A DNA stretch of 64,000 nt from an uncultured Bdellovibrionales bacterium (GTDB lineage: Bacteria > Bdellovibrionota_C > UBA2361 > CAIXSY01): the NCBI GenBank assembly GCA_964510065.1, contig CAZEAC010000010.1, forward strand, positions 2,074 to 66,073. Reading direction: 5' to 3'. The notes beneath the pieces are model-generated. The model was not told the origin of the DNA and did not search any database. It worked only from the letters and a program-made list of their open reading frames with translations. The position numbers and the translations under genes are program-made. Positions 13,331 to 63,951 of the stretch are shown one piece after another. Position 1 is the stretch's first letter, and every line of letters begins with the position of its first letter.

Positions 13331-13368
13331 GGTAGTTCTTGGACTATCGGCCGTCTGGAGAAATAAGA

Positions 13369-14499: not shown

Positions 14500-14543
14500 G
14501 GTGAGGTTAAGCCGTGGACCAGCTGCTTTGTCAGAAGTGTAGC

Positions 14544-16067: not shown

Positions 16068-16089
16068 TCGGTTTGTTTTTAGCGAAATT

Positions 16090-16755
16090 TTAGTCCCCAT
16101 TTTCACGAGCAAGAAAGGCGTGCATTCCGTAACGCCAGTTCTCTTTAAGAGCTCGCGTGGCGCGATCTTTTGCGCCCTTACGAAGTGCACTCAAGATTTC
16201 CTTATGCTGCTGATACGACGCTTGTACTAGACCTTCTTCTGCCATGTAGCGTGCTTCGTAGCGCGCGAGTTTTAGCTGAAGAGATTCAAGCAGGTCGTTC
16301 AAAGTCTCGTTCGTGGCCGACCCAAGCAGAACTGAGTGAAATTGGCGATCGAGTGCTCGCGCTTTCTCCGGATTCTTACGAGCACGTAAAAACTGCTCAT
16401 TGATATCGGTAAGTTTGTCGCTGAGAGTCCGTGCACGTTCGAAACAAAGCTCAAGGCGAAGCGCTTCTAATTCACCGACAATTGGATACAACTCTTCGGC
16501 CTCAGTCCGCGAAAGTGGAGCTACCGAAAATCCGATGTTTGGCTTTGCAAGCACTATGCCGTCTCGCTCAAGTGCAATAAGAGCTTCTCGAAGTGGCGTC
16601 CGGCTTACACGGAGCCGCTTGGCAAGCTGCTCCTCTTTTAGTCTTTTGCCTGATTCAAGCTGTCCGGAAATTACAAGATGAAGCAGCTTGCGACGGAGAA
16701 TTTCTCTGTTGGTACCTTCGCCGCGCGGCTGAGTCTTGCTGATCTTGTCCATGGT
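16090..16755 (-). CDS. GntR-family transcriptional regulator (FadR/FCD-type C-terminal domain)
   Basis: N-terminal wHTH KRLRVSRTPLREALIALERDGIV is typical of GntR. C-terminal helical FCD-like domain. Start at MDKISK (the ORF track extends to 16848). Confidence 0.75.
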   Translation of the reverse strand, partial: TMDKISKTQPRGEGTNREILRRKLLHLVISGQLESGKRLKEEQLAKRLRVSRTPLREALIALERDGIVLAKPNIGFSVAPLSRTEAEELYPIVGELEALRLELCFERARTLSDKLTDINEQFLRARKNPEKARALDRQFHSVLLGSATNETLNDLLESLQLKLARYEARYMAEEGLVQASYQQHKEILSALRKGAKDRATRALKENWRYGMHAFLARENGD

Positions 16756-33994: not shown

Positions 33995-36001
33995 ATGCGG
34001 AGCGAGAGCAAAGTGAAGCCAACTGATAAAATTACAAATGAGGCAGGTTTTTTACGGAAGTATTTTCGTAGCTACGCAAGGTCTCTCTTAGTCGGAATTT
34101 TGGCAATTCTATTACCGTGTGCCTGCTTTGCCGCGGATTTTTTTATTGATGGACCAAACGGCGCATCCTCGGATTCAAATCCCGGGACTGAGGCGTTTCC
34201 ATGGCGAACGATAAGTAAAGCGAATAGCACGTTACGAGCTGGTGATACTGTTCATATCAAGGCGGGCACCTACAACTCGTATATTAATCCAGTTAATTCG
34301 GGTAATGCCACTTCGCGAATAACCTACAAAAGCTTTGTCAGGCCCGGGAGCAGCGCCGCTGATGAGGTTATAATTTCGAATACGCGCTACGCCATATTTT
34401 TTGATGGCAAGGACTATGTCACGGTCATTGGGATAAAAGCGACTTTATGCACGCAGTTTGTCGTTCTCACCAATCAGGCAAGTAACAACCAGATCATAGA
34501 TAGTAGCTTTTATATACCTTCGGACCCAAATCAGTGGCCCAATTCCTTCATTGCTCAGGGCTCGCAGTATAATCACCTCTTACGCGTTCGTTTTGAACGG
34601 GGTGGTTTTTGCCGAAGTAGCGATCATGAAGATCAAGGAGCAGTGCTTGATATTGGAGATGAATCAAGCATAGATCTCACCCGCTTCAATCTTATTGAGA
34701 ATAGCGAGTTCTACCATGGTGGGCACCATGTCATCGGACTGTATGGTGAATCGAATACCTTCCGAAATAATTACCTGCATAATGAAAATTGGGCCGACGG
34801 AATTAGCACCTCCGATAAGCGCGGAAATCGAGCCCTCTATCTTAATGGGCAAGAGGGCAATACGGGAAAAAATCTAATCGAGGGAAATCGCTTCGGATAT
34901 TCGGGAAAGCCATGTGATTATGACAATCCTGACGGAAGCAATCGCTACGGGCCCTCAGGCATCGTTGCGATTTCAACTCCGCAGAATATTTTCCGTTACA
35001 ATAGTGTTTACTACGGTTTTGCGTACGGCGTTGGCACCAGCGCTTATTCTGGTTATACAGCCGGACGACAAAATCGATTTTATCACAACACTTTTTTTGC
35101 GAATGGGCACAACATCCCTTCGGCGTATTTGGGAGGCGGTGAGGACTGCGCCTTCCAATTTCGAAAGGTGACAAATGTCGAAAATGTGTTGGTTTCTAAC
35201 CTTTTCTTCTCACATCGAAATCTCTATCGCTACCATGAGTCGGCTGTCGCCTCGACGCAAGGCTTCGTCAACAACTACAATGGAGACAGCCAAGGCGATC
35301 CGCGCTTCGTCGGTAACCCGAGTATCGATCCACCCACGGACGTCTCAGGATATGATTTTAGAAATCAGGCTGCTCCCGATCTGCGCCTGACTCTGACGAG
35401 CCCCGCGAAGAATTTTGGGCCGGTGGCTACCACGGTGTCGTCTACTGATTCAGGGGCGGGCGTTTCTCTCCTTGTCACAGATGCCGCCAAACTTGGTGCC
35501 GTCGCGGCTGCGCCCGCTGGGCTTCTGCAACCACTTTGGATCGCGGTCGGATCGGAGAGTAATGTGGGCCAGATCGCATCAATTTCGGGCAATACTGTGA
35601 CGCTTCGATCCGCAGTGTCTCGGACGGCGGGTGCTTCTATCTGGATTTTAAAAAACCTGACTACGGTCGCGGCTGCCGACTCGGGAGCAGGTCTCACGCT
35701 TGTTCTTGCTGATGCCAGCTATTTTCAGGATGGCACCAAAGCGCCGCCGGGTACTGTTGAGGCCGATTGGATATCGGTTGGGACTAAAGCGAACCATGTA
35801 CAGATTACTCAGATTTCTGGAAACACAGTGACTTTGTCGCAATCGATAACCCGAAATGACAATGATCCAGTCTGGCTCTTTAAGAAGTCAGACGGCGAGC
35901 AGGTCTTTCAAGGTTCAGCTCCTGATGCCGGTGCTTTTGAATACTCTGAAGATTCTACGCCAGGAACACCTGCTGCGCCGCAGAATTTGAAGGTCAATTA
36001 G
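33995..36001 (+). CDS. secreted or anchored right-handed parallel beta-helix (pectate-lyase-fold, DUF1565-like) protein with a C-terminal tandem ~75-aa duplication
   Basis: N-terminal hydrophobic anchor. DGPNGASSDSNPGTEAFPWRTISKANSTLRAGDTVHIKAGTY is typical of beta-helix proteins. Two repeats of SGAG.(S/T)L.(V/L).DA...ISGNTVTL....R.....W(I/L)(L/F)K. Confidence 0.6.
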   Translation: MRSESKVKPTDKITNEAGFLRKYFRSYARSLLVGILAILLPCACFAADFFIDGPNGASSDSNPGTEAFPWRTISKANSTLRAGDTVHIKAGTYNSYINPVNSGNATSRITYKSFVRPGSSAADEVIISNTRYAIFFDGKDYVTVIGIKATLCTQFVVLTNQASNNQIIDSSFYIPSDPNQWPNSFIAQGSQYNHLLRVRFERGGFCRSSDHEDQGAVLDIGDESSIDLTRFNLIENSEFYHGGHHVIGLYGESNTFRNNYLHNENWADGISTSDKRGNRALYLNGQEGNTGKNLIEGNRFGYSGKPCDYDNPDGSNRYGPSGIVAISTPQNIFRYNSVYYGFAYGVGTSAYSGYTAGRQNRFYHNTFFANGHNIPSAYLGGGEDCAFQFRKVTNVENVLVSNLFFSHRNLYRYHESAVASTQGFVNNYNGDSQGDPRFVGNPSIDPPTDVSGYDFRNQAAPDLRLTLTSPAKNFGPVATTVSSTDSGAGVSLLVTDAAKLGAVAAAPAGLLQPLWIAVGSESNVGQIASISGNTVTLRSAVSRTAGASIWILKNLTTVAAADSGAGLTLVLADASYFQDGTKAPPGTVEADWISVGTKANHVQITQISGNTVTLSQSITRNDNDPVWLFKKSDGEQVFQGSAPDAGAFEYSEDSTPGTPAAPQNLKVN

Positions 36002-48299: not shown

Positions 48300-48776
48300 G
48301 TGAAAAAAAGTAACGCCGTGGCCGCAGACGGCATCAAGATTGTCGCCGAGAATCGGAAGGCGCGCGCCTATTTTGAAATTCTTGAGAAGTTCGAGGCCGG
48401 AATTGTACTCACGGGTGCCGAGATAAAATCGGTTCGTGCTGGTGGTATCAGCATTAACGAAGCCTATGTAAAACCCGAGAGTAATTCGGTGTTGCTCCTC
48501 GGCGCGCATGTGCGGCCCTACGCGTTTAGCAATGATCCCGAATATGTGCCGACACGCCCTAGAAAGCTGCTGCTGAGTAAAATGGAGATTAATAAGCTTC
48601 GCGGACGGGTTGAGCAGCAGGGGCTCACCATCGTTCCGCTCAAGTGTTACCTGCGACGTGGTTTTGCTAAGCTGGAAATTGCGCTCGCGCGCGGCAAAAA
48701 CGCCCCCGATAGACGTCAAGATATCAAGCGCCGTGAAGCTGATCGTGAAATCGCGCGGGCTACAAAGCGGCGCTAG
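48300..48776 (+). CDS. smpB: SsrA-binding protein
   Basis: IAENRKARAYFEILEKFEAGIVLTGAEIKS and GAHV.PY are conserved. GTG start. Lies upstream of the tmRNA gene. Confidence 0.9.
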   Translation: MKKSNAVAADGIKIVAENRKARAYFEILEKFEAGIVLTGAEIKSVRAGGISINEAYVKPESNSVLLLGAHVRPYAFSNDPEYVPTRPRKLLLSKMEINKLRGRVEQQGLTIVPLKCYLRRGFAKLEIALARGKNAPDRRQDIKRREADREIARATKRR

Positions 48777-49888: not shown

Positions 49889-50296
49889 GGGGGTGTCATG
49901 GTATCGACGGGATTTATGAGATCTATGTGAGCACGCCTAGGATCCGCAGGCCTAGTAAAAAAGGCGGAGAAACCTAAATGCAAACTCTTTTGATTTTGCG
50001 CAGAATGAAGAGCTGGCTATTGCCGCTTAACGTTCTGTAGATCGGTCCTCGAAAGACGACTGATCGGTTCTTATGCGACGCGCTTGTAATTGCATAAGGG
50101 CTTAAACTATTCGAGCTGGTCGCTGCAGCCGTTTGCCCTGCAGGGATGAGAAAATAGGCAGACTCGCTTGACGGAGATTCCGTAACAGTGAATCCAGATA
50201 GCTAAATTCGTCGCAAGGCGAAAAGTGCTGTTACTAAGCGTGTAGTGCATGTAGATTGAGACTTCTCGGACGCGGGTTCGACTCCCGCCACCTCCA
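49889..50296 (+). ncRNA. ssrA: tmRNA (ssrA); tag-like reading frame 49980-50030 encodes A-N-S-F-D-F-A-Q-N-E-E-L-A-I-A-A-stop
   Basis: 5' end GGGGGUGUCAUGGUAUCGACGGGAUUU. GUAAAAAAGGC precedes the resume codon. Tag ends in LAIAA-UAA. 3' end GGACGCGGGUUCGACUCCCGCCACCUCCA (T-arm and acceptor stem, CCA not encoded). Lies downstream of smpB. Confidence 0.9.
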
Positions 50297-50660
50297 GTTT
50301 TCCCATTCGGCATTCGAGCCCAGGGGCGGCCGCCCCTCTCGCTCGCTATGGCTCGCTTCTCCCCGCATCTCGGTTCGAATTGGTTCCCACCAGGTCCAGA
50401 CTTCGCCCCTCTGGGGCTTCGTCTGGCATGCCAGCTTTGCCGTGAAGCCTGTCGTCCCGAAGCTTTAGCGAAGGGCGACTATTCCCTTCGGCATTCTCGA
50501 GCCCAGGGGGCTCCGTCCCTTCTCGCTGCTGATTGCGGCTTCACCGCGATGACTCGAATTGGTTGCTGCCGCGTCAATGTTTTTCGCTTGGCACTTGGGC
50601 CCTTAGCGCGATGTAATTCGTCGCTCCGGCGGGTTCTTCTGGATTTACGGGCATCTCGCC
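50297..50660. repeat. two degenerate ~90-180-bp direct repeats resembling decayed copies of the ssrA 3' end (TCTCGGTTCGAATTGGTTCCCACC; GACTCGAATTGGTTGCTGCC)
   Basis: The blocks TTCCCATTCGGCATTCGAGCCCAGGGGC...CGGTTCGAATTGGTTCCCACC (50300-50392) and TTCCCTTCGGCATTCTCGAGCCCAGGGGG...GACTCGAATTGGTTGCTGCC (50483-50572) align at roughly 75% identity. They resemble the tmRNA T-arm/acceptor. Confidence 0.6.
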
Positions 50661-50803
50661 CACTTTGTGACGAATCCTGATGAGATTTGCGGGCTTAGGA
50701 CGTTGATCCTTCAGAATCGAATTTGCATTGTGAGAGAATGTTGATCGCTTGGATAGCTTCAATTATCAGGCATTTTTTTTAGTCGATTCTTGAAAAGCAC
50801 CTT

Positions 50804-52215: not shown

Positions 52216-52551
52216 CTATTTTCCAAACTTCTCAACGTAATCTTGCCGCACCGGAAAAAATGCATCGATGATTTTACAGTCGGTGAGCGCTTTGCCCGAA
52301 TGAATTGCATTCGAGGGAATTACTGCTACCGCTCCGGCATTGAGAACTCTCGACTCGCCGTTAATCGTGAGCTCAAACTCGCCTTCGATTATATTCGCGA
52401 GCTGCTCATGAACGTGCGAATGCTCGGGAAGTATGGCCCCTTTGGAGATGCTCCAGTGGGCAAGTGTAATGTTTTCCCCGTGCACGAACTTTGCACGAAG
52501 ACCGGGGAGTACTTCGATATCCTTTACTTTTGTAAGATCTATAAATGTCAA
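52216..52551 (-). CDS. cupin-2 domain protein
   Basis: G(X)5HXH(X)3,4E-like motif LPEHSHVHEQ...G and the second cupin motif G...P...H. 111 aa. Confidence 0.65.
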   Translation of the reverse strand: MTFIDLTKVKDIEVLPGLRAKFVHGENITLAHWSISKGAILPEHSHVHEQLANIIEGEFELTINGESRVLNAGAVAVIPSNAIHSGKALTDCKIIDAFFPVRQDYVEKFGK

Positions 52552-52623: not shown

Positions 52624-53520
52624 TTAAAAGATCGAGCATGTTGAAATGCGAAGCAGCTGGGTGGAGTGATCGGTCATGAGTATGTTGACGCCGTCGCCAA
52701 AGAGGCTTCTCCAATAAATTGGCCTGTCATAAACTGAGCCGGCGATATTCACGAGCGTTCGAATGCCGTGTTTCCGGATAGCACTGACCGCTTCGGGTGA
52801 ATACCACTTCTCAAGTTCTATAACGATCGGGTCTAAGTCTATTGATTCAGCAAGCTTGTCAGGTGAGCGTACTCGCATAAGGAGCGCGATATCGAAATAT
52901 TTATCCCTAAGAATTTTTCCGCATTGAGTACTCTTGCACTGTACAAGCACCCTGGCCTGATTATTGGTCGCACGAACCAGATCCAAGACTTGAGCGATTG
53001 CGTCGGGACTTTCATCCTTTAAATCTAGCTCAAGAAGTGTATTAAATGGCTTTACCGCTTCGAGCGCTTCGCGGAGGGTCGGAATCTTCTCGTCGTCTCG
53101 GCCTGCAAGTTCCACAATCTTTATCTCTTGATCGTTGAGCGAGTCGATTCTTCTTCCTTCGAATGTTCCTGGAGTTAAGGTGTTCCCACACTGAACCGTT
53201 GCGTCATGAAATAGAAGCGCGGTTCGTTCTCTGTTTAGACGCACATCGACTTCTAAAAGCGGAATGTGCAGTGAGGCGAGCTCTCGAATTCCGGAGAGAC
53301 TGTTGTCGGCGAAATGCTCTGTCCTTGCGCGATGAGCTGAGGGCCACGCGATTTCAACTGATCTATCTCGTAACGTTTCATGAATGGGGCGAGCTTGCGG
53401 CCATCGCGAGGAGCTCGCCGAAGGCGGACATTCGATGGTGGCATCGCGAATAGCCGTACAGCCGTTTAGCACCAACAGAATAAGGCAGAGGCCAAATTTT
53501 ATTGCAAAATTTATCGGCAT
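52624..53520 (-). CDS. glycerophosphodiester phosphodiesterase-family lipoprotein
   Basis: HRARTEHFADNSLSGIRELASLHIPLLEVDVRLNRERTALLFHDATV matches the GDPD catalytic block (HR...EN(T/S)...E.D...T.D...HD). Lipobox LVLNGC. Confidence 0.7.
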   Translation of the reverse strand: MPINFAIKFGLCLILLVLNGCTAIRDATIECPPSASSSRWPQARPIHETLRDRSVEIAWPSAHRARTEHFADNSLSGIRELASLHIPLLEVDVRLNRERTALLFHDATVQCGNTLTPGTFEGRRIDSLNDQEIKIVELAGRDDEKIPTLREALEAVKPFNTLLELDLKDESPDAIAQVLDLVRATNNQARVLVQCKSTQCGKILRDKYFDIALLMRVRSPDKLAESIDLDPIVIELEKWYSPEAVSAIRKHGIRTLVNIAGSVYDRPIYWRSLFGDGVNILMTDHSTQLLRISTCSIF

Positions 53521-53573: not shown

Positions 53574-56390
53574 CTATTCGCGATTATCGCCTGCTGTCGG
53601 ACTCAGCCTTTTAAGCAGTGATTCGAACAATGGTACCAACTTTTCCAGCGCGACGGCAATTCGCTCGGCGCTGTGTTCGAGGTCCGGACCACTTGCTTGC
53701 ACGGGAAGTGCGGTGAGGCGCTTTATAGTGCCCACGGCTTGAAGCAGCTCTTCAAAGCTTAAGGAGACAGCCGGGTTGGCCTTCGCTTTAATAAGTTCGG
53801 CCTTCTTCGCGCAGCAAAGGTTCGTAAGCGCGACTTTAATTGGTAAAGGGTTTAGGCCCAGGCATTCATTGGCGAGTTTCTTAAATTCCTCACTCTGCGC
53901 ATTACCGGGAAGCGGCGATTCGAGACTTTCAAGCATCTTGGAGATGATTACCTTTACATCCTCAATCTGCGGCCCTTTCAATTCAATGTGAATACCAAAA
54001 CGACCAAGCCGAAGTGCGGCGCGATCGACTAAGTCGATATGGTTAGTCGCCGCCATGAAGATTATCTCAGGATGCTTGGTTACTTCACGCTCGATGACAC
54101 GCAACATCGCGTTGGTAAGCGCGATCTGTTCGGGTGAGTTCTTTACAAGCTGCCGTTCAATCATCTCTCCTTCGATTTCGTCGAAGAAAAGAATGCAAGC
54201 CGGAGAGTTATCTTTGCGCATTTTTCCGGCGGCTTCTTCGATCTTTGTTTGAATAAATTTGGCGAGCTGCCGTTCCATCCGCTCCTCGGTCTCGGAGAGC
54301 AGCGCTTTATTTTGCCCCCACGACTCGGAGCTTCGTTTCGCGTCCTGATAAGCGGTGGACATCTCTTCTCGGGAGATACGCAAGATTGGCATACCCATGG
54401 TGTTACCGAGACATTGCACAAGAAATGTCTTGCCAACGCCGGGATCGCCGTAAAGAATAATTCCGTTCAGGAATACCTCTCCGGGACTCCTACCGCTCCA
54501 TGCGCTTTTGTTCTCGAGAAGCAATACGTGCTTTTCAATAAGCTCCGTGAGCGTGTTGACTATATCCTCATAGCCCCAATAGTCGCTACGATCGACGGAG
54601 TAGAGCCGCGTTACCGAACGTCGCGTATCTTCGACGTACTTAGCAACGGGCGAGTTCGAAGCCGTGAGATTCGCGGTTAAACTTCGCGAAAGATCCGAAA
54701 TATCATCCAGTCTTTGTAGCAAACTCTTTACGTTTCTTCGGACGAACTCATCTTTGGAGAGTACCTGCATCGATAACAGGACCCCGGCGAGGCGGGCATA
54801 CGGAACCTCTTTCGTCTCTTCCTTGCAGGCCTTAATTTCGTCATCGATAAGCCGTGCTATCTGTACGACATCGCGCTGAGCCATAAGTATGCGAATGCCG
54901 GTGGTCGTGCGGAGCAGTGGTTCGAGGCCTGTTTGCCGCATTGCTGACTCAAGTCGCTTGGCATTTTCCGGTAAGCCGAAAATGAGGTCTTCTACTGCCC
55001 ACGCGAGTGCCCGAATGTTTTCGGGTGATTCGAAATAATTTTCCGTTTTGTAGGTACTGCCTTGGAGCTTTCGAATCTTTCCCGTAAGCAGTTTTCCAGC
55101 GGCTTCGCGAATTGCTGGCTCCGAATGGGCAAGAATCGCCGAAACTAATTCCGCGTCGTTTTCGACGGGAATTATCTTTGAAAACTCAGGTGCAATCCGT
55201 CTTCGAAGTGCGTCCATCTCATGAAATGGATCGCGAGGTATGGAGATAAACGCGCTATCAAGCGTTGAACGGAGGCCATGGAAAATGCCTAAGAGCTCGG
55301 CCTGCATTTCAGGAGTTCGAAGGACTGCCTCAAGCTCTTGCGGTGCTACCCGCCACGCTGGAGCCGAACCGCTAAGCATATCGGTAGCAATTAGCTCGTG
55401 AAGATCGTACGTGTCAGGCTTTGTTGGATCGATTGCACGAGTTCCGAAAGAGATCTGAAGAAGCTTTGCGACTAGTTTCAGATCGCCGAGCAGTCCATCC
55501 AGTACTGCAGGCTTAAGCGATACTGAAAGTTGAGTTTCAGCAACGACAGTGTCGAGCTGGATTGGGTCGACATCGGTAATCGTAGCGGCGATCGTATAAA
55601 GCTTCTTGGAGAGCTCTTCAATTTGCTGCCCTATGGTTTCAGCGCGAGCACGGCATTCGTCGGCGGACTTTCGAAGACTACTGCCGTTCTCTTTGTCATT
55701 TTGCGCCTGCAGCTCAAAACTCGACGCTTTTGTCAGTTCGCTCGCTTTACTCTGCTGCTTTGATTTTAGCTCTTTAAAATGTGGAAGAAACTCCTCTTTG
55801 CGCGAACGAGAAAGCGCTAAATACGCCTCCGGCCCGGGAAGGTTCTCCATCTGGCTGTGGAGCCGAATGAATGGCGATCCGTAGCGGTACCACTCGCTGA
55901 GTGCGATAGTATCTCGATTGGCGCGAAGATAGAGCGAATGCAGCAGATCTTCCTCGCGCGATACCTTAGCCGGCTGGCGCTCGGTGAGCGCCACCTTCTT
56001 GCAGTCAACATGGTGCATAGCAATTGGAAGAAGCTCTAGAGAAACGGCTAAATCGCGTCGCGGATCGCGAGATCCAAAACGATTCACTGTCTCTAGAAAT
56101 TTTCCAAGCGCAATAAAGCCGCCGGTAGAGACCCGCAGTGCGTCAATAAATTCCTGAGCGTTGACCGATTTTGCTCGGAGGCCTGTGCCACGCGAGATAT
56201 CAATAGTTTCGTGAAGCGGTTGTCCGCGTACATATTTTGAGAGAAGTTCAGCAAGCTGTCGCAGCTCGCGAATTGGTGAAACTCGATCAATCGGTGGCAC
56301 GCGAGGTGCAGTTTTTACTGGGCTCGATGCAGGTGATGCGCCGCCACCTCTTGTACTAGCTTCATGGCCAAAGGCACGAGATTCAAGCAT
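53574..56390 (-). CDS. orphan classical-AAA ATPase with a ~640-aa predicted alpha-helical N-terminal region
   Basis: Walker A ILYGDPGVGKTF. Walker B ILFFDEIE. Second region of homology ATNHIDLVDRAALRLGRFGIHIEL (classical AAA clade). Large insert between Walker A and Walker B. Confidence 0.8.
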   Translation of the reverse strand: MLESRAFGHEASTRGGGASPASSPVKTAPRVPPIDRVSPIRELRQLAELLSKYVRGQPLHETIDISRGTGLRAKSVNAQEFIDALRVSTGGFIALGKFLETVNRFGSRDPRRDLAVSLELLPIAMHHVDCKKVALTERQPAKVSREEDLLHSLYLRANRDTIALSEWYRYGSPFIRLHSQMENLPGPEAYLALSRSRKEEFLPHFKELKSKQQSKASELTKASSFELQAQNDKENGSSLRKSADECRARAETIGQQIEELSKKLYTIAATITDVDPIQLDTVVAETQLSVSLKPAVLDGLLGDLKLVAKLLQISFGTRAIDPTKPDTYDLHELIATDMLSGSAPAWRVAPQELEAVLRTPEMQAELLGIFHGLRSTLDSAFISIPRDPFHEMDALRRRIAPEFSKIIPVENDAELVSAILAHSEPAIREAAGKLLTGKIRKLQGSTYKTENYFESPENIRALAWAVEDLIFGLPENAKRLESAMRQTGLEPLLRTTTGIRILMAQRDVVQIARLIDDEIKACKEETKEVPYARLAGVLLSMQVLSKDEFVRRNVKSLLQRLDDISDLSRSLTANLTASNSPVAKYVEDTRRSVTRLYSVDRSDYWGYEDIVNTLTELIEKHVLLLENKSAWSGRSPGEVFLNGIILYGDPGVGKTFLVQCLGNTMGMPILRISREEMSTAYQDAKRSSESWGQNKALLSETEERMERQLAKFIQTKIEEAAGKMRKDNSPACILFFDEIEGEMIERQLVKNSPEQIALTNAMLRVIEREVTKHPEIIFMAATNHIDLVDRAALRLGRFGIHIELKGPQIEDVKVIISKMLESLESPLPGNAQSEEFKKLANECLGLNPLPIKVALTNLCCAKKAELIKAKANPAVSLSFEELLQAVGTIKRLTALPVQASGPDLEHSAERIAVALEKLVPLFESLLKRLSPTAGDNRE

Positions 56391-56531
56391 TTTCCGTCCT
56401 CCTCACACAGCAGTCGCGCGAACAAAATAGAGCGCTCGAGTGCCCAATAGGCGCATTATAAACCCGCGATCTGGGGCAACCGAGTATATTTTGACATTAA
56501 GAAATTAAGCGTTATCGACGACATACTGAAT

Positions 56532-56951
56532 ATGAGCGAGATTCTACTCATTGATGACTCCGAAGACTATCGTGAAATTATTGGAACCATTCTGCTTGAT
56601 GCCGGCTATGTAGTTTCCGAGGCACGCTGTCCAGACGAGGCTTTTGGGCTGCTTTTTGGAATGAAGTTTGATCTTATCCTTTGTGATCTGCACATGCCAT
56701 TTACCCTTGATAGGCATATGCCAGAGTTTCCCTATTCAGTTGAAGTAGGGGTTCAAACAATTGAACAGCTGCAGAGCGCGCTTCCAAAAACTCCGATTAT
56801 CGCGATTACCGCATCGATGCCCTCTGACCGCGAGACGCTGCGTGACCGAATTGAAGTGGTGCCGATATTACGAAAGCCGTTTCCGGCAGACACCCTTATC
56901 CAGGCAGTAGAGTGGGCTTTACGTGATGATCCACGGGAAAGGATGCATTAA
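56532..56951 (+). CDS. stand-alone response-regulator receiver (CheY-like) domain protein
   Basis: ILLIDDSEDY...DLILCDLHMP with the phospho-acceptor Asp context. 139 aa. Confidence 0.75.
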   Translation: MSEILLIDDSEDYREIIGTILLDAGYVVSEARCPDEAFGLLFGMKFDLILCDLHMPFTLDRHMPEFPYSVEVGVQTIEQLQSALPKTPIIAITASMPSDRETLRDRIEVVPILRKPFPADTLIQAVEWALRDDPRERMH

Positions 56952-57020
56952 CTGTAAGCGCCTACGCCAACAATCAGGCGCTTACGTATTCTAGGGACAC
57001 GGCTAATGCGGCGCTGCTCA

Positions 57021-58379
57021 TTAAACCGCACCATCGGGCGGTAGTAATGGCACTGTCTCCCAGCCGCTTAATTCCCAAGAAAAGCCGATCTTCATTCCAG
57101 AGAACGCGCGCTGGCCGTCCAGGAAGAAAAGAAGGCTCAACATTAGCAAAACAAGAAATAATGCCCCTTGGAACGAAGCCCCGTAGCCGTGCCACGCGCC
57201 TGCGAGCCGAGGCATGAGAAAGAAGTAAAGCGAGACGAACCAATATGGCGAGTAAAGAAAAAATTCACGCCTGTGCCCAAAAAAAAGAATAAGGAGAAAA
57301 AAAACTGCAAAAATTGTAAGGAAAACGTAGGATTGGTAGATTCGCCGTACACTGAGACTCGGCCGCGCAATCAAACTACTCGCTAATAACCACGCCCAAA
57401 GCCATAATGTTCCGCCCTGCACAATTTCAGTGAAAGTCTGGCCGTAAAGCGGTGCCTGCAGGAGTGTACCTATGGTTCGATTTTTGTAGTCGAGCGGGTT
57501 CAAAACTGGGCCGAAAATGCTTCCGATAAAGACCGCGTATATTCGATCGAGAAACTCAGTGAGCCCGTGTGGCCAATACCAGTATTGATGATAAAATCGA
57601 ATGCCTGATTTTATGGAGGTTTGGTGGAAGAAGATCGGAATTTCTGGCCAAAGAAATGTCTGCAAATAGCCAAGTACTACAAGAAGTAGTGCGAGCAGTG
57701 AGGAAAAAAAAGCCAGCGCGCGAATACTAGCGACAAAGCTCTGACCAGAGCTTAGGCGAGAAAGTATAAAAAGAAATAGCGTAAGTGGAATTGAAAAGAT
57801 TAAAACGCCGCAGGCAGGTAGTGCTGCCAATGCCTGAAGCCACCAGCGGTTTTTCTTATCGAAAAGACTGAAGCAAAATAGTACGAGAAATGCCATGGCG
57901 TAGAGGTGGGTTTCGGGAACTGCTGAGAAGAAAATGATCGGGGGGGAGGCAAGCAGCGGTAGAGTAAACGCGAGATTTGTGCTCCAGCCGACGTTTTGCA
58001 GGGAGAGAAGATAGCAAAAAGCCGCCACGATCAGAGCGGCAGGGAACGCCAGAATAATTGAAAATGAGAGTTTCTCATTTCCCGTGAGCAGAGACATTAG
58101 CTTAAAGGGCGGGTGAACCATCAGCGGAAAAAGTGGGTGAGCTCGGATCCGATCGTAGGTTTCTTCGATTGAGCCACGAAAGGGTAGAGCCCGAATCTGA
58201 GCTTCGACCTTCCCTGTGTCGGCACCGATAAGCCAGTCATGCAGTGGTGACCAGGGTAGCTCCGATAGTCGAAAGCTGCTTGCAAGCGCTACCAGAAATG
58301 ACGCAAGGAAGACTAATAAAAGAGGCAGCCCGCGCTTAATAGTAAAATCCCGCGCCTCCGCCTTCACCTCCGACACCAT
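57021..58379 (-). CDS. polytopic membrane protein (more than 10 TM helices), hypothetical; last gene of the flp-like operon
   Basis: Hydrophobicity. 44-bp overlap with the upstream TadE-like gene. Confidence 0.45.
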   Translation of the reverse strand: MVSEVKAEARDFTIKRGLPLLLVFLASFLVALASSFRLSELPWSPLHDWLIGADTGKVEAQIRALPFRGSIEETYDRIRAHPLFPLMVHPPFKLMSLLTGNEKLSFSIILAFPAALIVAAFCYLLSLQNVGWSTNLAFTLPLLASPPIIFFSAVPETHLYAMAFLVLFCFSLFDKKNRWWLQALAALPACGVLIFSIPLTLFLFILSRLSSGQSFVASIRALAFFSSLLALLLVVLGYLQTFLWPEIPIFFHQTSIKSGIRFYHQYWYWPHGLTEFLDRIYAVFIGSIFGPVLNPLDYKNRTIGTLLQAPLYGQTFTEIVQGGTLWLWAWLLASSLIARPSLSVRRIYQSYVFLTIFAVFFLLILFFGHRREFFLYSPYWFVSLYFFLMPRLAGAWHGYGASFQGALFLVLLMLSLLFFLDGQRAFSGMKIGFSWELSGWETVPLLPPDGAV

Positions 58380-59079
58380 ACGCGGCCTGTGAGAGACGGG
58401 TGGACATTACCCCGCAAAGGTCATAATGCCCGGGAAGGTCAGGCATAATCACTACCCCCCAGGCGCGCCGGTCAGGCTGGGTACAATCAATTTTTACCAG
58501 CTGTTTGAACTTGGTCTTACAGCCTCCTACGTCGCGCTTAAATAAGGCGATAAGATCATCACAGCCTCTCGACGTAAGTATGTCGGTTCCATTACGCATG
58601 GCGTATGCGCCTGTTCCTTCGGCAAGCGCAAACAGTGGCGGCTCCGGCGGATTAAGATTCCACTGAGTACGATCGACCGGGGCATTAAGTCCTCCGGGAC
58701 AAAGATTTGAAATATCGTCAATCTGTACAAGAAATGAACAGACCCCTACTTTCAGGTAGGTATTATACGAGACTCGATTGCTTAACTTAAAGAGCTCCCT
58801 TTCGGCCAAAGTAGGCGAGAGTAGAATCCGTCCGCCTCTGTTCGGATCAAAGTCAAAAACTATCGGCTCAGGCCCAATTGCTGCGACGAGATCCATTCCC
58901 TGTTCAAGATCGATGGCCAAAATCCGCGAGCGCAATTTCGGGTAGATAAATAGATAGCCGAGCAAAAGAATTACTAAGAATCCTGAAAGGATGAGCGCAG
59001 CCTCAATAAGTGCAACTCCTCCAGGCTTTACTGAGCTACTACCGCGAAAGCGCGTTTTTCTTATTATCCTCATCAGCAT
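58336..59079 (-). CDS. TadE/TadF-like pseudopilin (247 aa)
   Basis: N-terminal PGGVALIEAALILSGFLVILLLG. Confidence 0.5.
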   Translation of the reverse strand: MLMRIIRKTRFRGSSSVKPGGVALIEAALILSGFLVILLLGYLFIYPKLRSRILAIDLEQGMDLVAAIGPEPIVFDFDPNRGGRILLSPTLAERELFKLSNRVSYNTYLKVGVCSFLVQIDDISNLCPGGLNAPVDRTQWNLNPPEPPLFALAEGTGAYAMRNGTDILTSRGCDDLIALFKRDVGGCKTKFKQLVKIDCTQPDRRAWGVVIMPDLPGHYDLCGVMSTRLSQAAYGVGGEGGGAGFYY

Positions 59080-59183
59080 AGCTATTAGCTACTTTTACCA
59101 CTTCAATCAATGGTTGCCCACCCATCGTATAAAGGGCAAGATACTTTGCTAGTAAGAATTAGAGCCGATGAGCGAAGCCCGGT

Positions 59184-60047
59184 TTAGAGCCGAGCTTCAA
59201 GATAGTTCGGCACTTCGACATTGACCTGTTTCTTCGATCGGACCACAACAGTAAAGGGCTCGCCGCTCGTATCAATTCCCAGCGCCGACAATAACTTTAC
59301 AATAGGCTGAATAAATTCGGGCGAAACAGCATAGATACACTCGAGTGCAAGGCTATTAGTTGGGATGAATTCCTTATAATCATCATGAACTTTATTGAAG
59401 AGTGCGCGCGCACCACCTCTCGCCGGCTTAAATTTACAGGTAAGACAGCCTGCTCCATCGGCCCTATTCGCGTCGGTTCCTAAAGGGTCACAGGGATAGC
59501 GCACCTGTCGGCCTAGGCTCTCGTAGATAAGGTTATTGGCATATCCTAGGCCATACATATAAATCGCCGGAAACTCTTTGGGGGTTGAGCCGCTCTCGAC
59601 TAATAGCGAATCGTAACTTTTTAGCACAGACTTATAAGAGAGCTCGGCCACTTCCACCGGTTCGCTTGGAGTGGCTTCTTTCCAGTTTCTATTGACTAGT
59701 CGGATTGGCGCGCCTGCGGCAAGGATGGACTTGGCATAGGACCAGTCATTCGTACCACTTAAAACTGATACAGTCCCGGCAGTTGCATAAAGCGGGTCAC
59801 GATCCGGTGAGTCGGTGCTCACTCCGCCAAGTGTTGGGACTACCGCCGAGCCGGCGCGGCGTGGATCGCCACGGGTAATTGCAAGTCTTACTGCTTGACC
59901 TGTTGCCCAGTGCACCGTAAGTGTTGCGTGCAGAACTGTGGCAAGCCAGAGTATAGCGAAAAAGAAAGTCATCACTATCGGAAGGGCGAAGGCCGCTTCA
60001 ATTAAGACAGCACCTTTAGAAATATCGCCGTGTATGTACCGCTTCAT
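59184..60047 (-). CDS. TadE/TadF-like pseudopilin (287 aa)
   Basis: N-terminal KGAVLIEAAFALPIVMTFFFAIL. Confidence 0.55.
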   Translation of the reverse strand: MKRYIHGDISKGAVLIEAAFALPIVMTFFFAILWLATVLHATLTVHWATGQAVRLAITRGDPRRAGSAVVPTLGGVSTDSPDRDPLYATAGTVSVLSGTNDWSYAKSILAAGAPIRLVNRNWKEATPSEPVEVAELSYKSVLKSYDSLLVESGSTPKEFPAIYMYGLGYANNLIYESLGRQVRYPCDPLGTDANRADGAGCLTCKFKPARGGARALFNKVHDDYKEFIPTNSLALECIYAVSPEFIQPIVKLLSALGIDTSGEPFTVVVRSKKQVNVEVPNYLEARL

Positions 60048-60311
60048 CTAAATACACTCCTCGGGCGAAAGAAAGCCCCGCCCGTCAGTACACGGACCCA
60101 TTGGACCGAGCGGTGTTCCAGTATACAGTGGCGTGGCCCCCTGTGGTTGCGAGGCAGCGTCTAAAGACTGGCTCCCCCGTCTTTCAAATGCCCCGCCTAA
60201 GAAATTACTTACCCCCATAAGCGCAACGAGGAGAATTGAGAGACCAAGTACATACTCGACAAGGGTTGCCCCGGTCGCGCATTGCTTATGGTTCCGCCAG
60301 GATCTGGTCAT
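60048..60311 (-). CDS. flp: Flp-family prepilin
   Basis: ATGATLVEYVLGLSILLVALMG matches the Flp motif G/(A/T)T.IEY.L..(A/S)LIA..., with a short charged leader. The C-terminal extension is longer than a typical Flp. Confidence 0.6.
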   Translation of the reverse strand: MTRSWRNHKQCATGATLVEYVLGLSILLVALMGVSNFLGGAFERRGSQSLDAASQPQGATPLYTGTPLGPMGPCTDGRGFLSPEECI

Positions 60312-62923
60312 AGCTTCGGCTCAAATGAGAACAATCGCTCCTCGATAAGTGATTTTACAAAGCTTGAGACGGTGACCCTTGTTGCGCACACGCCACTCGC
60401 GGGAAGACCATCAAGATGTCCAATGAAGTCTTTATAGAACTGATTTGAATCTCCACTACCACCACAGGAAGCCCCGGCCCCAGTCATAGTATCTGCCCAT
60501 GGGCTAATTACATAGAGACGGTTTCGGTAGGGTGCTCTAGGGCTCACCGAACTTGCCAGAGGATCTATTCCAAAGAGACAGCGGACTCGATCTACTGCAT
60601 CGCCATCGCAGTTAGCGGTTCCGGCATCAAGCGCGTCTGTCGGCGTCATCGGAATATAGATGACAGTTACCGGAAAAATACCCTGAGTCAGCTCCGGGTT
60701 GTTTATCCGAAGATCGCCGACATAGGCCAGTAAATTATGTTGATGAGGGGGGCGGTGAAGAATGATTACAGTCGGGGCATTTCTATCGAGCCGGTATAAA
60801 TTCGTTACGGTCTGGTTGCCACCGAAAGGGAATTCGGGCTCGTTGGCGTAGGTAGCAGGCCCGGGAGGTTCCGCCGGCCAAACCGTGAGCGGGAATAGCC
60901 CTGGCGGTGCGTAAAAGAAGGGATGTGGCTGGTTTGGTGCGCCAAAGTTATTTGGCAATCGACGATGATTAGCGAGAAATGAGCCGAAGTCGGGAAGCAG
61001 ATCGTTGTCCCCGCCGGGCTTTTGGCAAGGCCAGCCGGGAAAAGCTTCATTCAGAGGATGATAGCCTACGGGACAGGATTGGATCGATCCAATTATCGCC
61101 GCGACCTCCGGAGCGGTAAGGCCTCGGGAGGTATTATTGGTTTCGTCGTTAAGATCGGTGCTGTGTGGATCCACATTGCTGTTTGGCCAGGGTCTTGGCC
61201 CCTGCTCCCAGGGCTGACCGGGAGCGAAGGGTATATTTCTAAGCTTCGGGTTATAGGCAAACCCTGCCGGGTCAAACGGATCGTTACCAGGCAATATGAA
61301 TTGTGGCCTATCGATCCCATTTCGGTCATCTATGCCATTGTCATCTGGATCGAACCCGGAGTAGAGCTGATAGCAGATCCTTAGCTGCTCGGCGATAAAC
61401 TGCTGATGCTGGTCGCTTAGATTGTAGAGGTTCGCGTTCCCGTTTCCATCTCGCCAGGGGTTTATCGGACCATCCTTATTCTGGACACTCCACGCGTCGA
61501 AGTGTCCATCGATACTGCCAGTGACCGGGTAATCCTCTCGTGAACTATTGTAGTATACGTAAGGCAGCTGATACTGCGGCGCGGCAAGATCATCTCCTAG
61601 CAGTGAATCAACAATCTTTACAGGTTTATTTTGTCCCCAGGTCGAGCTGTAATAATCAGTGTTCGGTGATCTTCGGTTTGCCGGGTTTACTACGGCGAGA
61701 TCGGTTGAGTACCTGGTAAGAGAAGATCGCATAAGATACTCTAGCAATCCGCTTACAATCAGGTTTCTTACAAATATAGTAGGATTAAGGCAGGCCGCCA
61801 TGTGCGACCAAAGCGGGTCTTCACTGCCCCATCCTGAAATATGCATATAATCAAAGTAGCCACCGAGTTCATCACCTGCATCCGCAGGTGGAGTTCCATT
61901 ATCTACCGCATAGCCGCCGGGAGAGATGTCAAATTCAGTTGCTGGCTTTTTGTGATTGCCGGGATCGCCTATAAAGTGAGTGCTAAAAAGAGAACCATAT
62001 TCTCCAAGGGTAGTTAAGCGGAGGAGGCTATATTTATCTAAATACTTCTTGGTCTCTACTCCAAGAGCTCCCTCATTTGGTTCCCACCAAGGGAAATTTG
62101 CTGGGCCGGGAATTGGCGTCGTCATCTGAGGTGCCACCAAGATCTTAATTCCCATCGGCCCCTGCGGGGCTCCACCAGCGGTAAGCGGAATCTCGCCACG
62201 AGGTCTGCGCCAGAAAGCTGATTTAGCCGAGATAATTCTTGGCCCGAAAAAAATCGTTGAGTACTCCGCAACCGCTTCGCAGGCAACTGCCGCGCCGACT
62301 AGTGGGTTAGGAAAATTAGGAGGAGTTTCGGGGCAGGCGCCACCACCTGCTGTTTGCGGGGATACACAGCCGGTTGAGACCAAGTTGCCGCTCCAAAAGT
62401 TGTTAGGAAAGCCACCGCTCGGTGCGTTGAAATCAGTGGTGTCGTAAACATACTCGCATGTTCCAACAGCTCCAACATCACAGCTGGTAATGTTACATAT
62501 CCCACTCGCGCAGCCGCTGAGCAGTCCCGCTGCATTTGCTGTGAAATTGGCCTCAAGGTATCCCGGATCAAATACTGGGGCATACACCCGCGCATGGGTG
62601 ATGGTAAGATTTCGCTGACGCGGCGCAGCCGCCCAGGCATTTACCTGGTCGCGAAAGCCAACGACAACTTCGCGCTGGAAAAAAGGATTGTAAGAGACTG
62701 TCCTACAACGTTCATCAAGATCCCTTCGAAAGCCGGTTTCAGCGTGTTTGGTAAGGAGTAGATCAACTCCGAGCGCGCTTATCACTATGCTGAAAATCGC
62801 GCCCATTACCGCGATAAGCGGAATCACGACACCGGCGTCAGAGCGGAGCCGCTTAGAAAATCGTGGCAATTTATTGGGAATGCCCATATTCCTTAGATGC
62901 AGTTTTGAAAGCACAATGCGCAA
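60308..62923 (-). CDS. giant TadG-like / pilus-tip-like secreted protein (871 aa), first gene of the flp-like operon
   Basis: N-terminal RSDAGVVIPLIAVMGAIFSIVISALGVD (TadE/G-like hydrophobic N-terminus). Asn/Asp/Pro/Gly-rich body with many DPxxD/NG motifs. ATGA coupling to flp. Confidence 0.5.
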   Translation of the reverse strand: MRIVLSKLHLRNMGIPNKLPRFSKRLRSDAGVVIPLIAVMGAIFSIVISALGVDLLLTKHAETGFRRDLDERCRTVSYNPFFQREVVVGFRDQVNAWAAAPRQRNLTITHARVYAPVFDPGYLEANFTANAAGLLSGCASGICNITSCDVGAVGTCEYVYDTTDFNAPSGGFPNNFWSGNLVSTGCVSPQTAGGGACPETPPNFPNPLVGAAVACEAVAEYSTIFFGPRIISAKSAFWRRPRGEIPLTAGGAPQGPMGIKILVAPQMTTPIPGPANFPWWEPNEGALGVETKKYLDKYSLLRLTTLGEYGSLFSTHFIGDPGNHKKPATEFDISPGGYAVDNGTPPADAGDELGGYFDYMHISGWGSEDPLWSHMAACLNPTIFVRNLIVSGLLEYLMRSSLTRYSTDLAVVNPANRRSPNTDYYSSTWGQNKPVKIVDSLLGDDLAAPQYQLPYVYYNSSREDYPVTGSIDGHFDAWSVQNKDGPINPWRDGNGNANLYNLSDQHQQFIAEQLRICYQLYSGFDPDDNGIDDRNGIDRPQFILPGNDPFDPAGFAYNPKLRNIPFAPGQPWEQGPRPWPNSNVDPHSTDLNDETNNTSRGLTAPEVAAIIGSIQSCPVGYHPLNEAFPGWPCQKPGGDNDLLPDFGSFLANHRRLPNNFGAPNQPHPFFYAPPGLFPLTVWPAEPPGPATYANEPEFPFGGNQTVTNLYRLDRNAPTVIILHRPPHQHNLLAYVGDLRINNPELTQGIFPVTVIYIPMTPTDALDAGTANCDGDAVDRVRCLFGIDPLASSVSPRAPYRNRLYVISPWADTMTGAGASCGGSGDSNQFYKDFIGHLDGLPASGVCATRVTVSSFVKSLIEERLFSFEPKL

Positions 62924-62974
62924 CTCAACCTTAGCTACATCTGTCGACAGTAGGAGTTAACGTACTTAAGTAAA

Positions 62975-62990
62975 AAAATCTATAGATTTT
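62975..62990. promoter_or_regulatory. perfect 16-bp palindrome AAAATCTATAGATTTT in the AT-rich region ~50 bp upstream of the flp-like operon; candidate operator
   Basis: Read directly. Lies in a low-GC leader. Confidence 0.4.
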
Positions 62991-63071
62991 AACTACTTAA
63001 ATCAACTAGGGATATTTCTTAGAAGAGTCTCAGCAGCAAAAAAATATGTAGCGATTTCAGTCTTTTGCCCT

Positions 63072-63142
63072 AAACCCGTGACGGTCCCACATGTCCCTAC
63101 TTTTCTGAGAAAGTAGGGACATGTGGGACCGTCACGGGTTTT
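63072..63142. repeat. perfect 32-bp-arm palindrome (AAACCCGTGACGGTCCCACATGTCCCTACTTT-ctgag-AAAGTAGGGACATGTGGGACCGTCACGGGTTT)
   Basis: Read directly. Overlaps the stop codon of the 63097-63951 gene and lies upstream of the flp-like operon promoter region. Confidence 0.85.
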
Positions 63143-63951
63143 AGAAAATCACCGCGCGCGCTTTGATCTTGCATATCGAAAATATCCACACCACTTTTAA
63201 CAAAGTATGCTGCGCTGCCGTCAGCCCAATACTGCGTGGTAATCTCGCGCCAGCCTCCGAACTTGAATTGCCAGCTGCTAGTCTCTGAAAAGGGAAACCA
63301 GGGGCTCCAATTTCTTTCGCCATCATCAGAAATTCGAAAAAATTCGGCGCCTTTTGCTCGATGGTGGAAGGTCGCCTTTCGTTTGGCAATCGGTGTGCGT
63401 GACGAGGTTGCCCCAAGATCAACCATCGTATAGTCGATTATGTGGTCAAAGTTAATATCACGATTGAAGATAACGTTGCCCTTGGTTCCACTTCGAATCC
63501 GAGAAGAGAACTCCGAGAATAGTGCTCGGCCGTCAAGTGACTGAGCTCCCTTCAAAATCATAATCCGATTGATTCCTTCGCGAAGTGCAGTAGAGAATAA
63601 AAAGGAGGTCGCCCCATCCTCACTCTTTAGTCGGTCATTAGTAAGCGCTTTACCGTTAATGGTGATTGAGTGCGCGAGCGAACTTATGTTCATAGCTCGG
63701 TTGAATCTTAGCTTCACCACAATATCTCCCGACGGAACAGCCGAGTCATGCGGCGGATCAACCGAAAGAACGTATGGATCGAGCTCTCTATAGATTCCTT
63801 TTGGTACGAATATCTTCACCCCGTAGCCGGGGATTCCAATGACAACTTTTCTATCGTTGCCTACCTGCAGCGATTCGCGCGCATCGAGCGCGTTAACATA
63901 GCTTGCACTTCCGATACCCAAGGTGCGCGCCATGCTGAAGCTAGAAGTCAC
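63097..63951 (-). CDS. hypothetical protein (at least 284 aa; may extend beyond the window)
   Basis: ORF. No recognised motif. Confidence 0.4.
   Translation of the reverse strand: MTSSFSMARTLGIGSASYVNALDARESLQVGNDRKVVIGIPGYGVKIFVPKGIYRELDPYVLSVDPPHDSAVPSGDIVVKLRFNRAMNISSLAHSITINGKALTNDRLKSEDGATSFLFSTALREGINRIMILKGAQSLDGRALFSEFSSRIRSGTKGNVIFNRDINFDHIIDYTMVDLGATSSRTPIAKRKATFHHRAKGAEFFRISDDGERNWSPWFPFSETSSWQFKFGGWREITTQYWADGSAAYFVKSGVDIFDMQDQSARGDFLKPVTVPHVPTFSEK

Follow-up and report, generated by a model that had tools for sequence, protein, structure and literature searches.

Here we describe an ATPase gene from an uncultured Bdellovibrionales bacterium, which lies on the minus strand of a 64,000-nucleotide stretch of contig CAZEAC010000010.1 (assembly GCA_964510065.1); this whole stretch is called the window in what follows. 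What is notable about the encoded protein is that it has lost pore loop 1 while its catalytic residues are intact. The gene is genuine and well initiated: translation of the open reading frame (ORF) begins at an ATG, and this start is well supported because a Shine-Dalgarno sequence, GAGGAGG, sits 7 nucleotides upstream. An earlier note on this DNA, made from the sequence alone, had proposed the same ORF, and we confirm its extent; the product has 938 residues. The public protein collection holds an identical unnamed 938-residue protein (P0001, NCBI, on a contig of 87 kb), and window positions 55800-57212 are matched at 100% identity by a 1.4-kb contig of sequencing run SRR16481186. From its N-terminus onwards, the protein consists of a variable tail, a large N-domain, a single AAA module and a C-terminal extension (Table 1). 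The tail cannot be aligned across the family and holds no hydrophobic signal-like segment; no signal peptide or transmembrane segment was found anywhere in the protein, whose maximum 19-residue hydropathy is 1.26. The extension, which ends in ...TAGDNRE, is unique to the window protein, since the other members of the family stop earlier in alignment A1.

By its sequence motifs, the module at residues 597-895 is a classical AAA domain, with a P-loop core of the ASCE type that bears a Walker A motif, a Walker B motif (hhhhDE) and a sensor-1 asparagine, with a second region of homology (SRH) with two arginines, and no sensor-2 arginine. Pfam PF00004 matches residues 644-804 (E=1.2e-21) and is the one AAA match in the protein; the AAA_lid_3 model of Pfam was not detected in it. 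The motifs on which the earlier note had built (GDPGVGKT, FFDEIE and the SRH) all stand exactly where it had placed them. Both arginines of the SRH are present in ATNHIDLVDRAALRLGRFG, and they belong to a set of residues that is invariant in 16 of 16 aligned family members: G648, G651, G653, K654, D737, E738, N783, R794, G796 and R797. In place of the GxSGAD of other classical AAA proteins, and with it the sensor-2 arginine, the lid carries the motif G-L-x-P-L with a conserved P848, the sensor-2 position being assigned by our own reading of the alignment. Residues 597-640 form an ordinary AAA N-linker that aligns to p97 and VAT, and the N-terminal region of novel sequence is therefore about 596 residues long, not 640. 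The earlier description of a region of some 640 residues without a recognisable motif thus stands as to the lack of matches, and falls as to the boundary, which lies near residue 596.

The placement of the module among AAA groups follows the ranking of hidden Markov model (HMM) and structure matches. In PDB searches with the single sequence and with the family profile, the top positions went to NVL, archaeal VAT, Afg2/SPATA5, p97/Cdc48 and Rix7, with Rpt subunits, Mpa/ARC and FtsH ranked below this Cdc48-type set. The profile E-values ran from 1e-37 to 1e-22, and those for NVL, VAT, Afg2 and p97 from 1e-37 to 1e-33. The full-length AlphaFold2 (AF2) model, with a mean predicted local distance difference test (pLDDT) of 82.5 and a predicted template modelling score (pTM) of 0.69, was aligned by Foldseek over about 300 residues to Rix7, p97, Afg2, NVL, FtsH and Rpt at E about 1e-9. 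With these best matches, two arginines in the SRH and no sensor-2 arginine, the earlier assignment to the classical AAA clade is borne out. The NCBIfam scores for PAN, FtsH, Mpa, CDC48, IteA and CdvC are all far under the family cut-offs, which puts the module outside these families. The invariance of the catalytic and arginine-finger residues despite low overall identity indicates selection for ATP hydrolysis at sites between subunits. An active ATPase that relies on a neighbouring subunit for catalysis, in a ring or another oligomer, would be expected to show this pattern, and we infer that the protein assembles into a ring.

The protein belongs to a distinct family. When residues 1-600 served as the phmmer query in an exhaustive search of 1.84 billion representatives, 20 proteins came up at E<=1e-3; the top match reached E=1.6e-26 and spanned the whole N-domain. 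The family as used here comprises P0006-P0024 and the window protein, 16 members of which are in alignment A1. Most members are 856-923 residues long, and the AAA module at the C-terminus is shared by all of the 15 longest; mean pairwise identity falls from about 34% over the AAA module to about 20% over the N-domain. In alignments A1 and A3 the family signature consists of an N-domain of roughly 550-600 residues with W...LPGPxxYL...S and DVDP motifs, and of an AAA module with a DYWGQ linker, an IDEMEAEF Walker B region, TNIMLRVIE and ATNHIDxVDxAALRxGR(F/Y)G; by these features the window protein belongs to the family. All traced members come from metagenomes or metagenome-assembled genomes, and the only names attached to them are "AAA family ATPase [Deltaproteobacteria bacterium]", for a relative in a syntenic locus (L004), and "SpoVK/Ycf46/Vps4 family" at JGI. 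Homologue searches that relied on a word index, whether started from the protein or from the family alignment, recovered nothing beyond the ATPase itself and generic AAA matches. A scan of a genome collection of species representatives, which does not contain the window genome, gave only an unrelated actinobacterial AAA gene, and a metagenome scan with alignment A3 added two short contigs. In a viral scan there was one spurious 28-residue Walker A match, and nothing similar occurred in 50,697 phage and 72,556 plasmid records. The family is thus very rare and known only from uncultured bacteria. It is no orphan, as the earlier note had called it, since about 20 representatives exist, most of them with the same architecture.

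What sets the family apart from its nearest relatives, in sequence, is its replaced pore loop 1. Classical AAA motors of the Cdc48 and proteasome type are best known from eukaryotes and archaea, and have been studied mostly as unfoldases that thread polypeptides; in Cdc48, VAT and Rpt an aromatic-hydrophobic-Gly pore loop 1 follows strand beta2. Opposite the KYYG pore loop of VAT, the family consensus reads "kasq" in the profile alignment. Across the family this position has the form REEM-x-x-A, followed by a variable hydrophilic segment of about 20-45 residues, and a conserved aromatic is absent from it in all 16 aligned members. In the AF2 model of the window protein, the insertion (residues 674-727) folds into two helices, 674-689 and 695-727. 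The pore-loop-1 motif is a functional hallmark of classical AAA proteins, not a strict membership criterion, and the D1 domain of p97 likewise lacks an aromatic version of it. Its replacement argues against ordinary processive threading, without proving that threading does not occur.

The second distinctive element is the mostly helical, family-specific N-domain. The AF2 model of residues 1-596 has a pLDDT of 84.6 and a pTM of 0.79, with low values only in the tail and in the loop at residues 62-69, and it shows a helical bundle, a long charged hairpin, a small alpha/beta insert and an irregular alpha-solenoid (about residues 360-596). Conservation is concentrated at the base of the hairpin, in W167, L184-P185-G-P-x-x-Y190-L191-x-x-S194 and D273-x-x-P276; P185 is invariant, W167, L184 and S194 are conserved in at least 90% of members, and Y190 and L191 in at least 75%. 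The hairpin itself varies from 45 to 76 residues and in its isoelectric point, and is missing in P0024. Searched as a profile and member by member, the N-domain matched nothing in Pfam, NCBIfam or PHROGs, and matches from PADLOC were confined to residues 641-890, that is, to the AAA module. Against PDB sequences there was nothing beyond a designed coiled coil (E=0.52), and against PDB folds the model gave no global match. Weak local resemblances were seen to the alpha-solenoid scaffolds of importin-beta, adaptins, Nup205 and HEATR1; scaffolds of this kind are typical protein-binding platforms. Judged from the model, the fold of the N-domain appears structurally novel. A match to a common family, which would have spoken against the earlier view of this region, was found neither in the sequence searches nor in the PDB fold searches.

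A number of described systems resemble the protein in one respect or another. Like the window ATPase, the type II proteins Cdc48/p97/VAT, NVL/Rix7 and Afg2/Drg1 have a two-arginine SRH, an ATN sensor 1 and no sensor-2 arginine. Cdc48-type proteins, however, combine a D1-D2 tandem with a double-psi beta-barrel (DPBB)/beta-clam N-domain, whereas the window ATPase has one AAA module and a helical N-domain, and the pore-loop-1 aromatic of Cdc48 and VAT is lost in every member of its family. Among bacterial proteins, YjoB of Bacillus subtilis is a standalone classical AAA protein with a lineage-specific N-domain above the ring and no protease partner, and it has been proposed to be a client-specific chaperone (PMC9565160). 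In being a standalone bacterial classical AAA protein with an N-domain specific to its lineage, the window ATPase is like it. YjoB is about 400 residues long, with a beta-rich N-terminal domain of 159 residues, and belongs to a Bcs1-like branch with an "ED" Walker B (PMC9565160); the window family, in contrast, has the canonical "DE" (D737/E738), and its N-domain is helical and about 560 residues long. In the clade of SpoVK, CbbX and EccA, variable N-terminal recruitment domains (helical tetratricopeptide repeats in EccA) are joined to a single AAA module with narrow clients, and the clade signature is a GY in the sensor-1 region together with a retained sensor-2 arginine (PMC11513918). The likeness to the window family is one of architectural logic only, and while EccA is located in type VII secretion loci (PMC11513918), the window family has no conserved locus. 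Both groups show that the earlier note overstated the rarity of bacterial classical AAA proteins other than FtsH, given that SpoVK, CbbX, EccA and YjoB have all been described (PMC11513918, PMC9565160). IetA and the CBASS-associated TRIP13/Pch2 are, like the window ATPase, bacterial proteins with a single AAA module, to which it gives partial HMM matches; their obligatory partners, the protease IetS for IetA and HORMA plus CD-NTase proteins for TRIP13, are absent from all loci of the window family.

Taken case by case, membership of the established groups is not supported. For FtsH, there is no match to PF01434 or PF06480 and no transmembrane segment, and TIGR01241 scores 42.5 bits against 600. 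For PAN, Mpa and ARC, the NCBIfam scores are 40-48 bits against 500-750, and the protein has neither an OB fold nor a C-terminus of the HbYX or GQYL type. Cdc48, VAT and Cpa are excluded by the single AAA match and the lack of a DPBB/beta-clam N-domain, and the Bcs1/YjoB branch by the FFDEIE Walker B, in which D737-E738 is invariant. SpoVK, EccA and CbbX are excluded by a sensor 1 of A-T-N-H without GY and by P848 where the sensor-2 arginine would lie. IetA is excluded by a score of 37 bits against a cut-off of 510 for IteA_antiphage and by the lack of a protease neighbour in nine loci. The meiotic clade (Vps4/CdvC, katanin, spastin) does not appear to fit either, with a CdvC NCBIfam score of 16.9 bits against 650 and no MIT domain.

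We propose that the protein is a soluble cytoplasmic classical AAA ATPase, likely ring-forming, that remodels one or a few dedicated clients via its helical N-domain, probably without processive threading; we consider this reading about equally likely to be right or wrong. In it, the subunits would assemble into a ring and use ATP hydrolysis for the remodelling, assembly or release of a dedicated client or a small number of them. The helical N-domain would be the platform on which a client docks, with the patch formed by W167, LPGPEAYL and DVDP at the base of the hairpin as the best candidate for a binding site. Movements driven by ATP would be passed to the N-domain, or to a client at the surface of the ring, as in a dedicated chaperone. 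We propose this surface transmission instead of threading because a hydrophilic helical insertion of variable length and composition stands where the pore-loop-1 aromatic would be; that the protein acts like a chaperone, and all statements about its client, we infer. The proposal is in keeping with the lack of any fused protease, nuclease or other effector domain, and with the lack of a partner gene conserved across nine loci, whose contexts are mostly housekeeping ones; in both the window and the relative at L004 the gene lies near smpB and tmRNA. Precedents are YjoB, SpoVK, CbbX and EccA, standalone bacterial classical AAA proteins that act as client-specific chaperones without a protease partner (PMC9565160, PMC11513918).

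Several points weigh against this proposal. The genomic context yields no consistent clue to the client, and the nearest relatives of the AAA module are general unfoldases (Cdc48, Rpt) and not members of the SpoVK/EccA/CbbX chaperone clade. A mechanism without threading is not proved by the missing pore-loop-1 aromatic, as the near-invariant R746 in pore loop 2, or the insertion itself, could engage substrate. Moreover, the AF2 models were built on a shallow alignment of 16-17 sequences, and the statement that the N-domain has no fold match holds against the PDB only.

Table 1. Features of the ATPase gene and protein, of its surroundings in the window, and of related loci. Positions are those of the window, except in the last four lines, where they are those of the locus named.
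Feature	Position	Strand	Basis or remark
ATPase coding sequence	53574..56390	(-)	938 aa + stop; ORF list and translation
Shine-Dalgarno GAGGAGG	56398..56404	(-)	Read from sequence
Residues 1-36, disordered Pro/Ser/Ala/Gly-rich tail	56283..56390	(-)	pLDDT <50 in both models
Residues 37-596, mostly helical N-domain	54603..56282	(-)	AF2 models, family search
Residues 167-194, best-conserved N-domain motif, W167...L184-P185-G-P-E-A-Y190-L191...S194	55809..55892	(-)	Alignment
Residues 198-268, long antiparallel charged helical hairpin	55587..55799	(-)	Models: helices 198-231 and 236-268
Residues 272-276, TDVDP, conserved turn after hairpin	55563..55577	(-)	Alignment A1; D273 and P276 >=75%
Residues 597-895, one classical AAA module made up of N-linker, alpha/beta core and helical lid	53706..54602	(-)	Pfam, PDB profile, Foldseek
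Residues 648-655, Walker A GDPGVGKT	54426..54449	(-)	Translation; family alignment
Residues 674-727, hydrophilic helical insertion at pore-loop-1 position	54210..54371	(-)	Family alignment, VAT alignment, model
Residues 733-738, Walker B ILFFDE (ILFFDE-IE, 733-740)	54177..54194	(-)	Translation; alignment
Residues 781-804, SRH ATNHIDLVDRAALRLGRFGIHIEL	53979..54050	(-)	Sensor-1 N783, arginine fingers R794 and R797; translation, alignment
Residues 896-938, C-terminal extension	53574..53705	(-)	One helix, 904-928; model secondary structure
smpB	48300-48776	(+)	1.1 kb upstream of tmRNA
tmRNA	49889-50299	(+)	Rfam RF00023, 140 bits; tag peptide ANSFDFAQNEELAIAA
Fic-domain protein, 383 aa	50804-51955	(-)	PADLOC SoFic, E=3e-57
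Small cupin gene	52216-52551	(-)	72 bp 3' of GDPD gene
GDPD-family phosphodiesterase	52624-53520	(-)	Lipoprotein-type N-terminus (...LVLNGC); 53 bp 3' of ATPase gene
Single-domain CheY-like receiver, 139 aa	56532-56951	(+)	Asp8/Asp9/Asp52 and Lys114 present
L004 long tmRNA, 492 nt	12931-13422	(+)	Tag ANFTIANGDVAEPMALAA
L004 type I restriction HsdR-like gene	14013-15139	(+)	After tmRNA
L003 giant flagellin, 638 aa	12918-14834	(+)	Adjoins ATPase-family gene
L007 giant flagellin, 626 aa	5623-7503	(-)	Adjoins ATPase-family gene

In the window, the ATPase gene lies 3.3 kb from the tmRNA gene, which follows a chromosomal housekeeping run made up, in order, of the genes for EPSP synthase, FabF, PanB, PanD and SmpB. 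The 4 kb after the tmRNA gene (50-54 kb) have the lowest GC content of the window, 0.47-0.48 against about 0.50-0.51, and this dip beside the tmRNA suggests an insertion hot spot. Neither an integrase nor a directly repeated tmRNA 3' end was found around the ATPase gene, and despite the dip no island can be delimited. Downstream of the ATPase gene come the genes for a GDPD-family lipoprotein and a cupin, and with a terminator-like hairpin at 52142-52129, after the cupin gene, these three may be co-transcribed. Beyond them lies the Fic gene, with a promoter-like site of its own at 52029-52000 that agrees with the consensus at 11 of 12 positions. Its product scores 49 bits against the NCBIfam SoFic cut-off of 550, and the gene, next to the tmRNA, could by itself constitute a defence or toxin element. 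On the other side, the gene for the receiver is divergent from the ATPase gene across an intergenic region of 142 bp. The earlier note had both the Fic protein and the receiver as next neighbours; the receiver does adjoin, and the Fic gene is separated from the ATPase gene by those for the GDPD lipoprotein and the cupin.

Some further features of these surroundings may be recorded. Right after the tmRNA, at 50297-50665 (+), there is a degenerate tandem duplication with a unit of about 183 bp, the first 100 nucleotides of whose copies are roughly 75% identical and share TTCGGCATTC..GAGCCCAGGGG and TCGAATTGGTT; the duplication escaped detection by Tandem Repeats Finder. A 110-residue ORF overlapping it (50348-50680) looks spurious. 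On the far side of the receiver, a gene run at 57021-63951 (-) encodes a polytopic membrane protein of 452 residues, a TadE-like pilin of 287 residues, and proteins of 247, 871 and 284 residues without a Pfam or NCBIfam match, and a separate protein of 713 residues with a Tad N-terminal motif is encoded at 24464-26605 (-). Together, the run and the 713-residue protein have the look of a Tad/Flp-type pseudopilin cluster, an unusual one whose subunits are very large.

To compare neighbourhoods, the ORFs of the window and of eight longer loci of other family members were clustered all against all. The ATPase occurs in each of the nine loci and every other gene family in two of them at most, so that the conserved neighbourhood for which the earlier note had proposed to look does not exist among them. 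The Fic, receiver, GDPD and cupin genes beside the window ATPase recur in none of the other eight. Not being conserved there, the Fic and receiver genes give no clue to function, and their adjacency looks coincidental. Two pairs of loci have neighbours in common. One is the window with L004 (GCA_024102635.1), which shares with the window the run of FabF, HhH-GPD, SseB, PanB, PanD and SmpB, with the ATPase and tmRNA genes nearby. Since this synteny goes together with identities of 60% for PanB, 65% for SmpB and 28% for the ATPase, it points, on the strength of these comparisons, to vertical inheritance of an ATPase that is diverging rapidly. The HsdR-like gene that follows the tmRNA in L004 means that this flank, too, carries variable or defence-type genes. 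In the second pair, L003 and L007, the ATPase gene adjoins genes for giant flagellins, orthologous and 35% identical, whose variable middle is filled with FG-GAP/VCBS-type repeats. Immediate neighbours are otherwise diverse. A DUF11 surface-type protein adjoins in L004, a collagen-repeat protein in L011 (where toxin-antitoxin-like and HNH genes flank the ATPase gene), and a Kelch propeller protein of 806 residues in L013; PRPP synthase and Ffh are further immediate neighbours across the loci, and L008 and L010 have housekeeping neighbours only.

Other explanations draw on parts of the same evidence. The protein could be an anti-phage or conflict component, an AAA sensor or remodeller like IetA or the TRIP13 of CBASS in a variable island by the tmRNA. 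The partial PADLOC matches to IetA (E=1e-14) and TRIP13 (E=2e-13) point this way, as do the nearby tmRNA with the SoFic-like gene in the low-GC segment between, the HsdR-like gene of L004, the toxin-antitoxin-like and HNH genes of L011, and the fast evolution of the N-domain, at about 20% pairwise identity. These matches, however, are to generic AAA segments and fall far below the cut-offs (IteA, 37 against 510 bits); none of the nine loci has an IetS protease, a HORMA protein or another effector next to the ATPase gene, and no effector domain is fused. With mostly housekeeping contexts, nothing similar in the phage and plasmid records, and no integrase or tmRNA-derived repeat to bound an island, we regard a defence role as rather unlikely. 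Less likely still is that the protein is secreted and enters prey or host cells as an injected effector, at which the earlier note had hinted; we hold this to be very improbable. Its disordered first 36 residues, its quickly diverging N-domain and an AAA type best known from eukaryotes and archaea would suit an effector. Against this, it has no signal peptide or transmembrane segment, no secretion-system or chaperone gene is consistently nearby, the plasmid and phage records lack it, and the gene stands in housekeeping contexts and has been kept vertically near smpB and tmRNA across deep divergence, as the syntenic distant relative shows.

The AAA module itself would be compatible with a conventional threading unfoldase that feeds a separate protease or acts in disaggregation, like PAN/Mpa or Cdc48, seeing that its nearest relatives by sequence and by structure are Cdc48/VAT/NVL/Afg2, Rpt/PAN and FtsH and that both arginine fingers and the catalytic glutamate are intact. 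In all 16 aligned members, though, the aromatic-hydrophobic-Gly pore loop 1 has given way to a variable insertion; there is no N-domain with a coiled coil and an OB fold, the C-terminus (...GDNRE) is not HbYX-like, and the ATPase gene has no gene for a proteasome or a protease beside it at any locus, all of which makes such an unfoldase quite unlikely. A more specific version of our proposal has the protein as a chaperone that holds or releases large filament or repeat proteins destined for secretion or the cell surface (giant FG-GAP flagellins, Tad pilins, DUF11 and Kelch proteins) before their export, much as EccA does for substrates of type VII secretion. The flagellins of 626-638 residues beside the ATPase genes of L003 and L007 would fit, as would the DUF11, collagen-repeat and Kelch neighbours and the TadE-like pilin cluster that starts two genes from the window ATPase. 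Yet no neighbour family recurs beyond L003 and L007, a pair that may share ancestry and whose gene orientations are unlike; large repeat proteins are probably common in such genomes, and the purely housekeeping neighbours of L008 and L010 offer no such client. This version, too, strikes us as improbable.

Taken further, the remodelling of dedicated clients that we favour could amount to a new AAA subclass: a single-ring motor of the Cdc48/proteasome type that works without pore-loop threading, and that uses its insertion and an N-domain of new fold on a lineage-specific client, possibly FG-GAP flagellins or similar exported filament or repeat proteins. This is doubtful, though conceivable. In metagenomes one often meets AAA modules joined to unknown N-domains in uncharacterised proteins, and the practical weight of this one is limited by its distribution, about 20 clusters in 1.84 billion representatives and in uncultured bacteria only. 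A bacterial family that keeps all catalytic and inter-subunit residues with a replaced pore loop 1 nonetheless offers a natural test of motors without threading, and a domain of about 560 residues without a fold relative in the PDB would extend the known set of substrate-recruitment domains.

Elsewhere in the window, three large ORFs have no Pfam match at E<=1e-5: 3703-7254 (-), of 1183 residues, 14544-16190 (-), of 548, and 33995-36001 (+), of 668, the last with only a weak N-terminal NCBIfam similarity to pectate-lyase-like surface proteins. All window proteins that were checked against about 15 billion proteins stand alone as singletons when clustered at 90% identity. For the GlnRS of the window the nearest homologue is 77% identical, and homologues at about 68% identity are spread across many phyla; NCBIfam returned no families specific to a lineage. 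The window organism is a poorly sampled, deep-branching uncultured bacterium.

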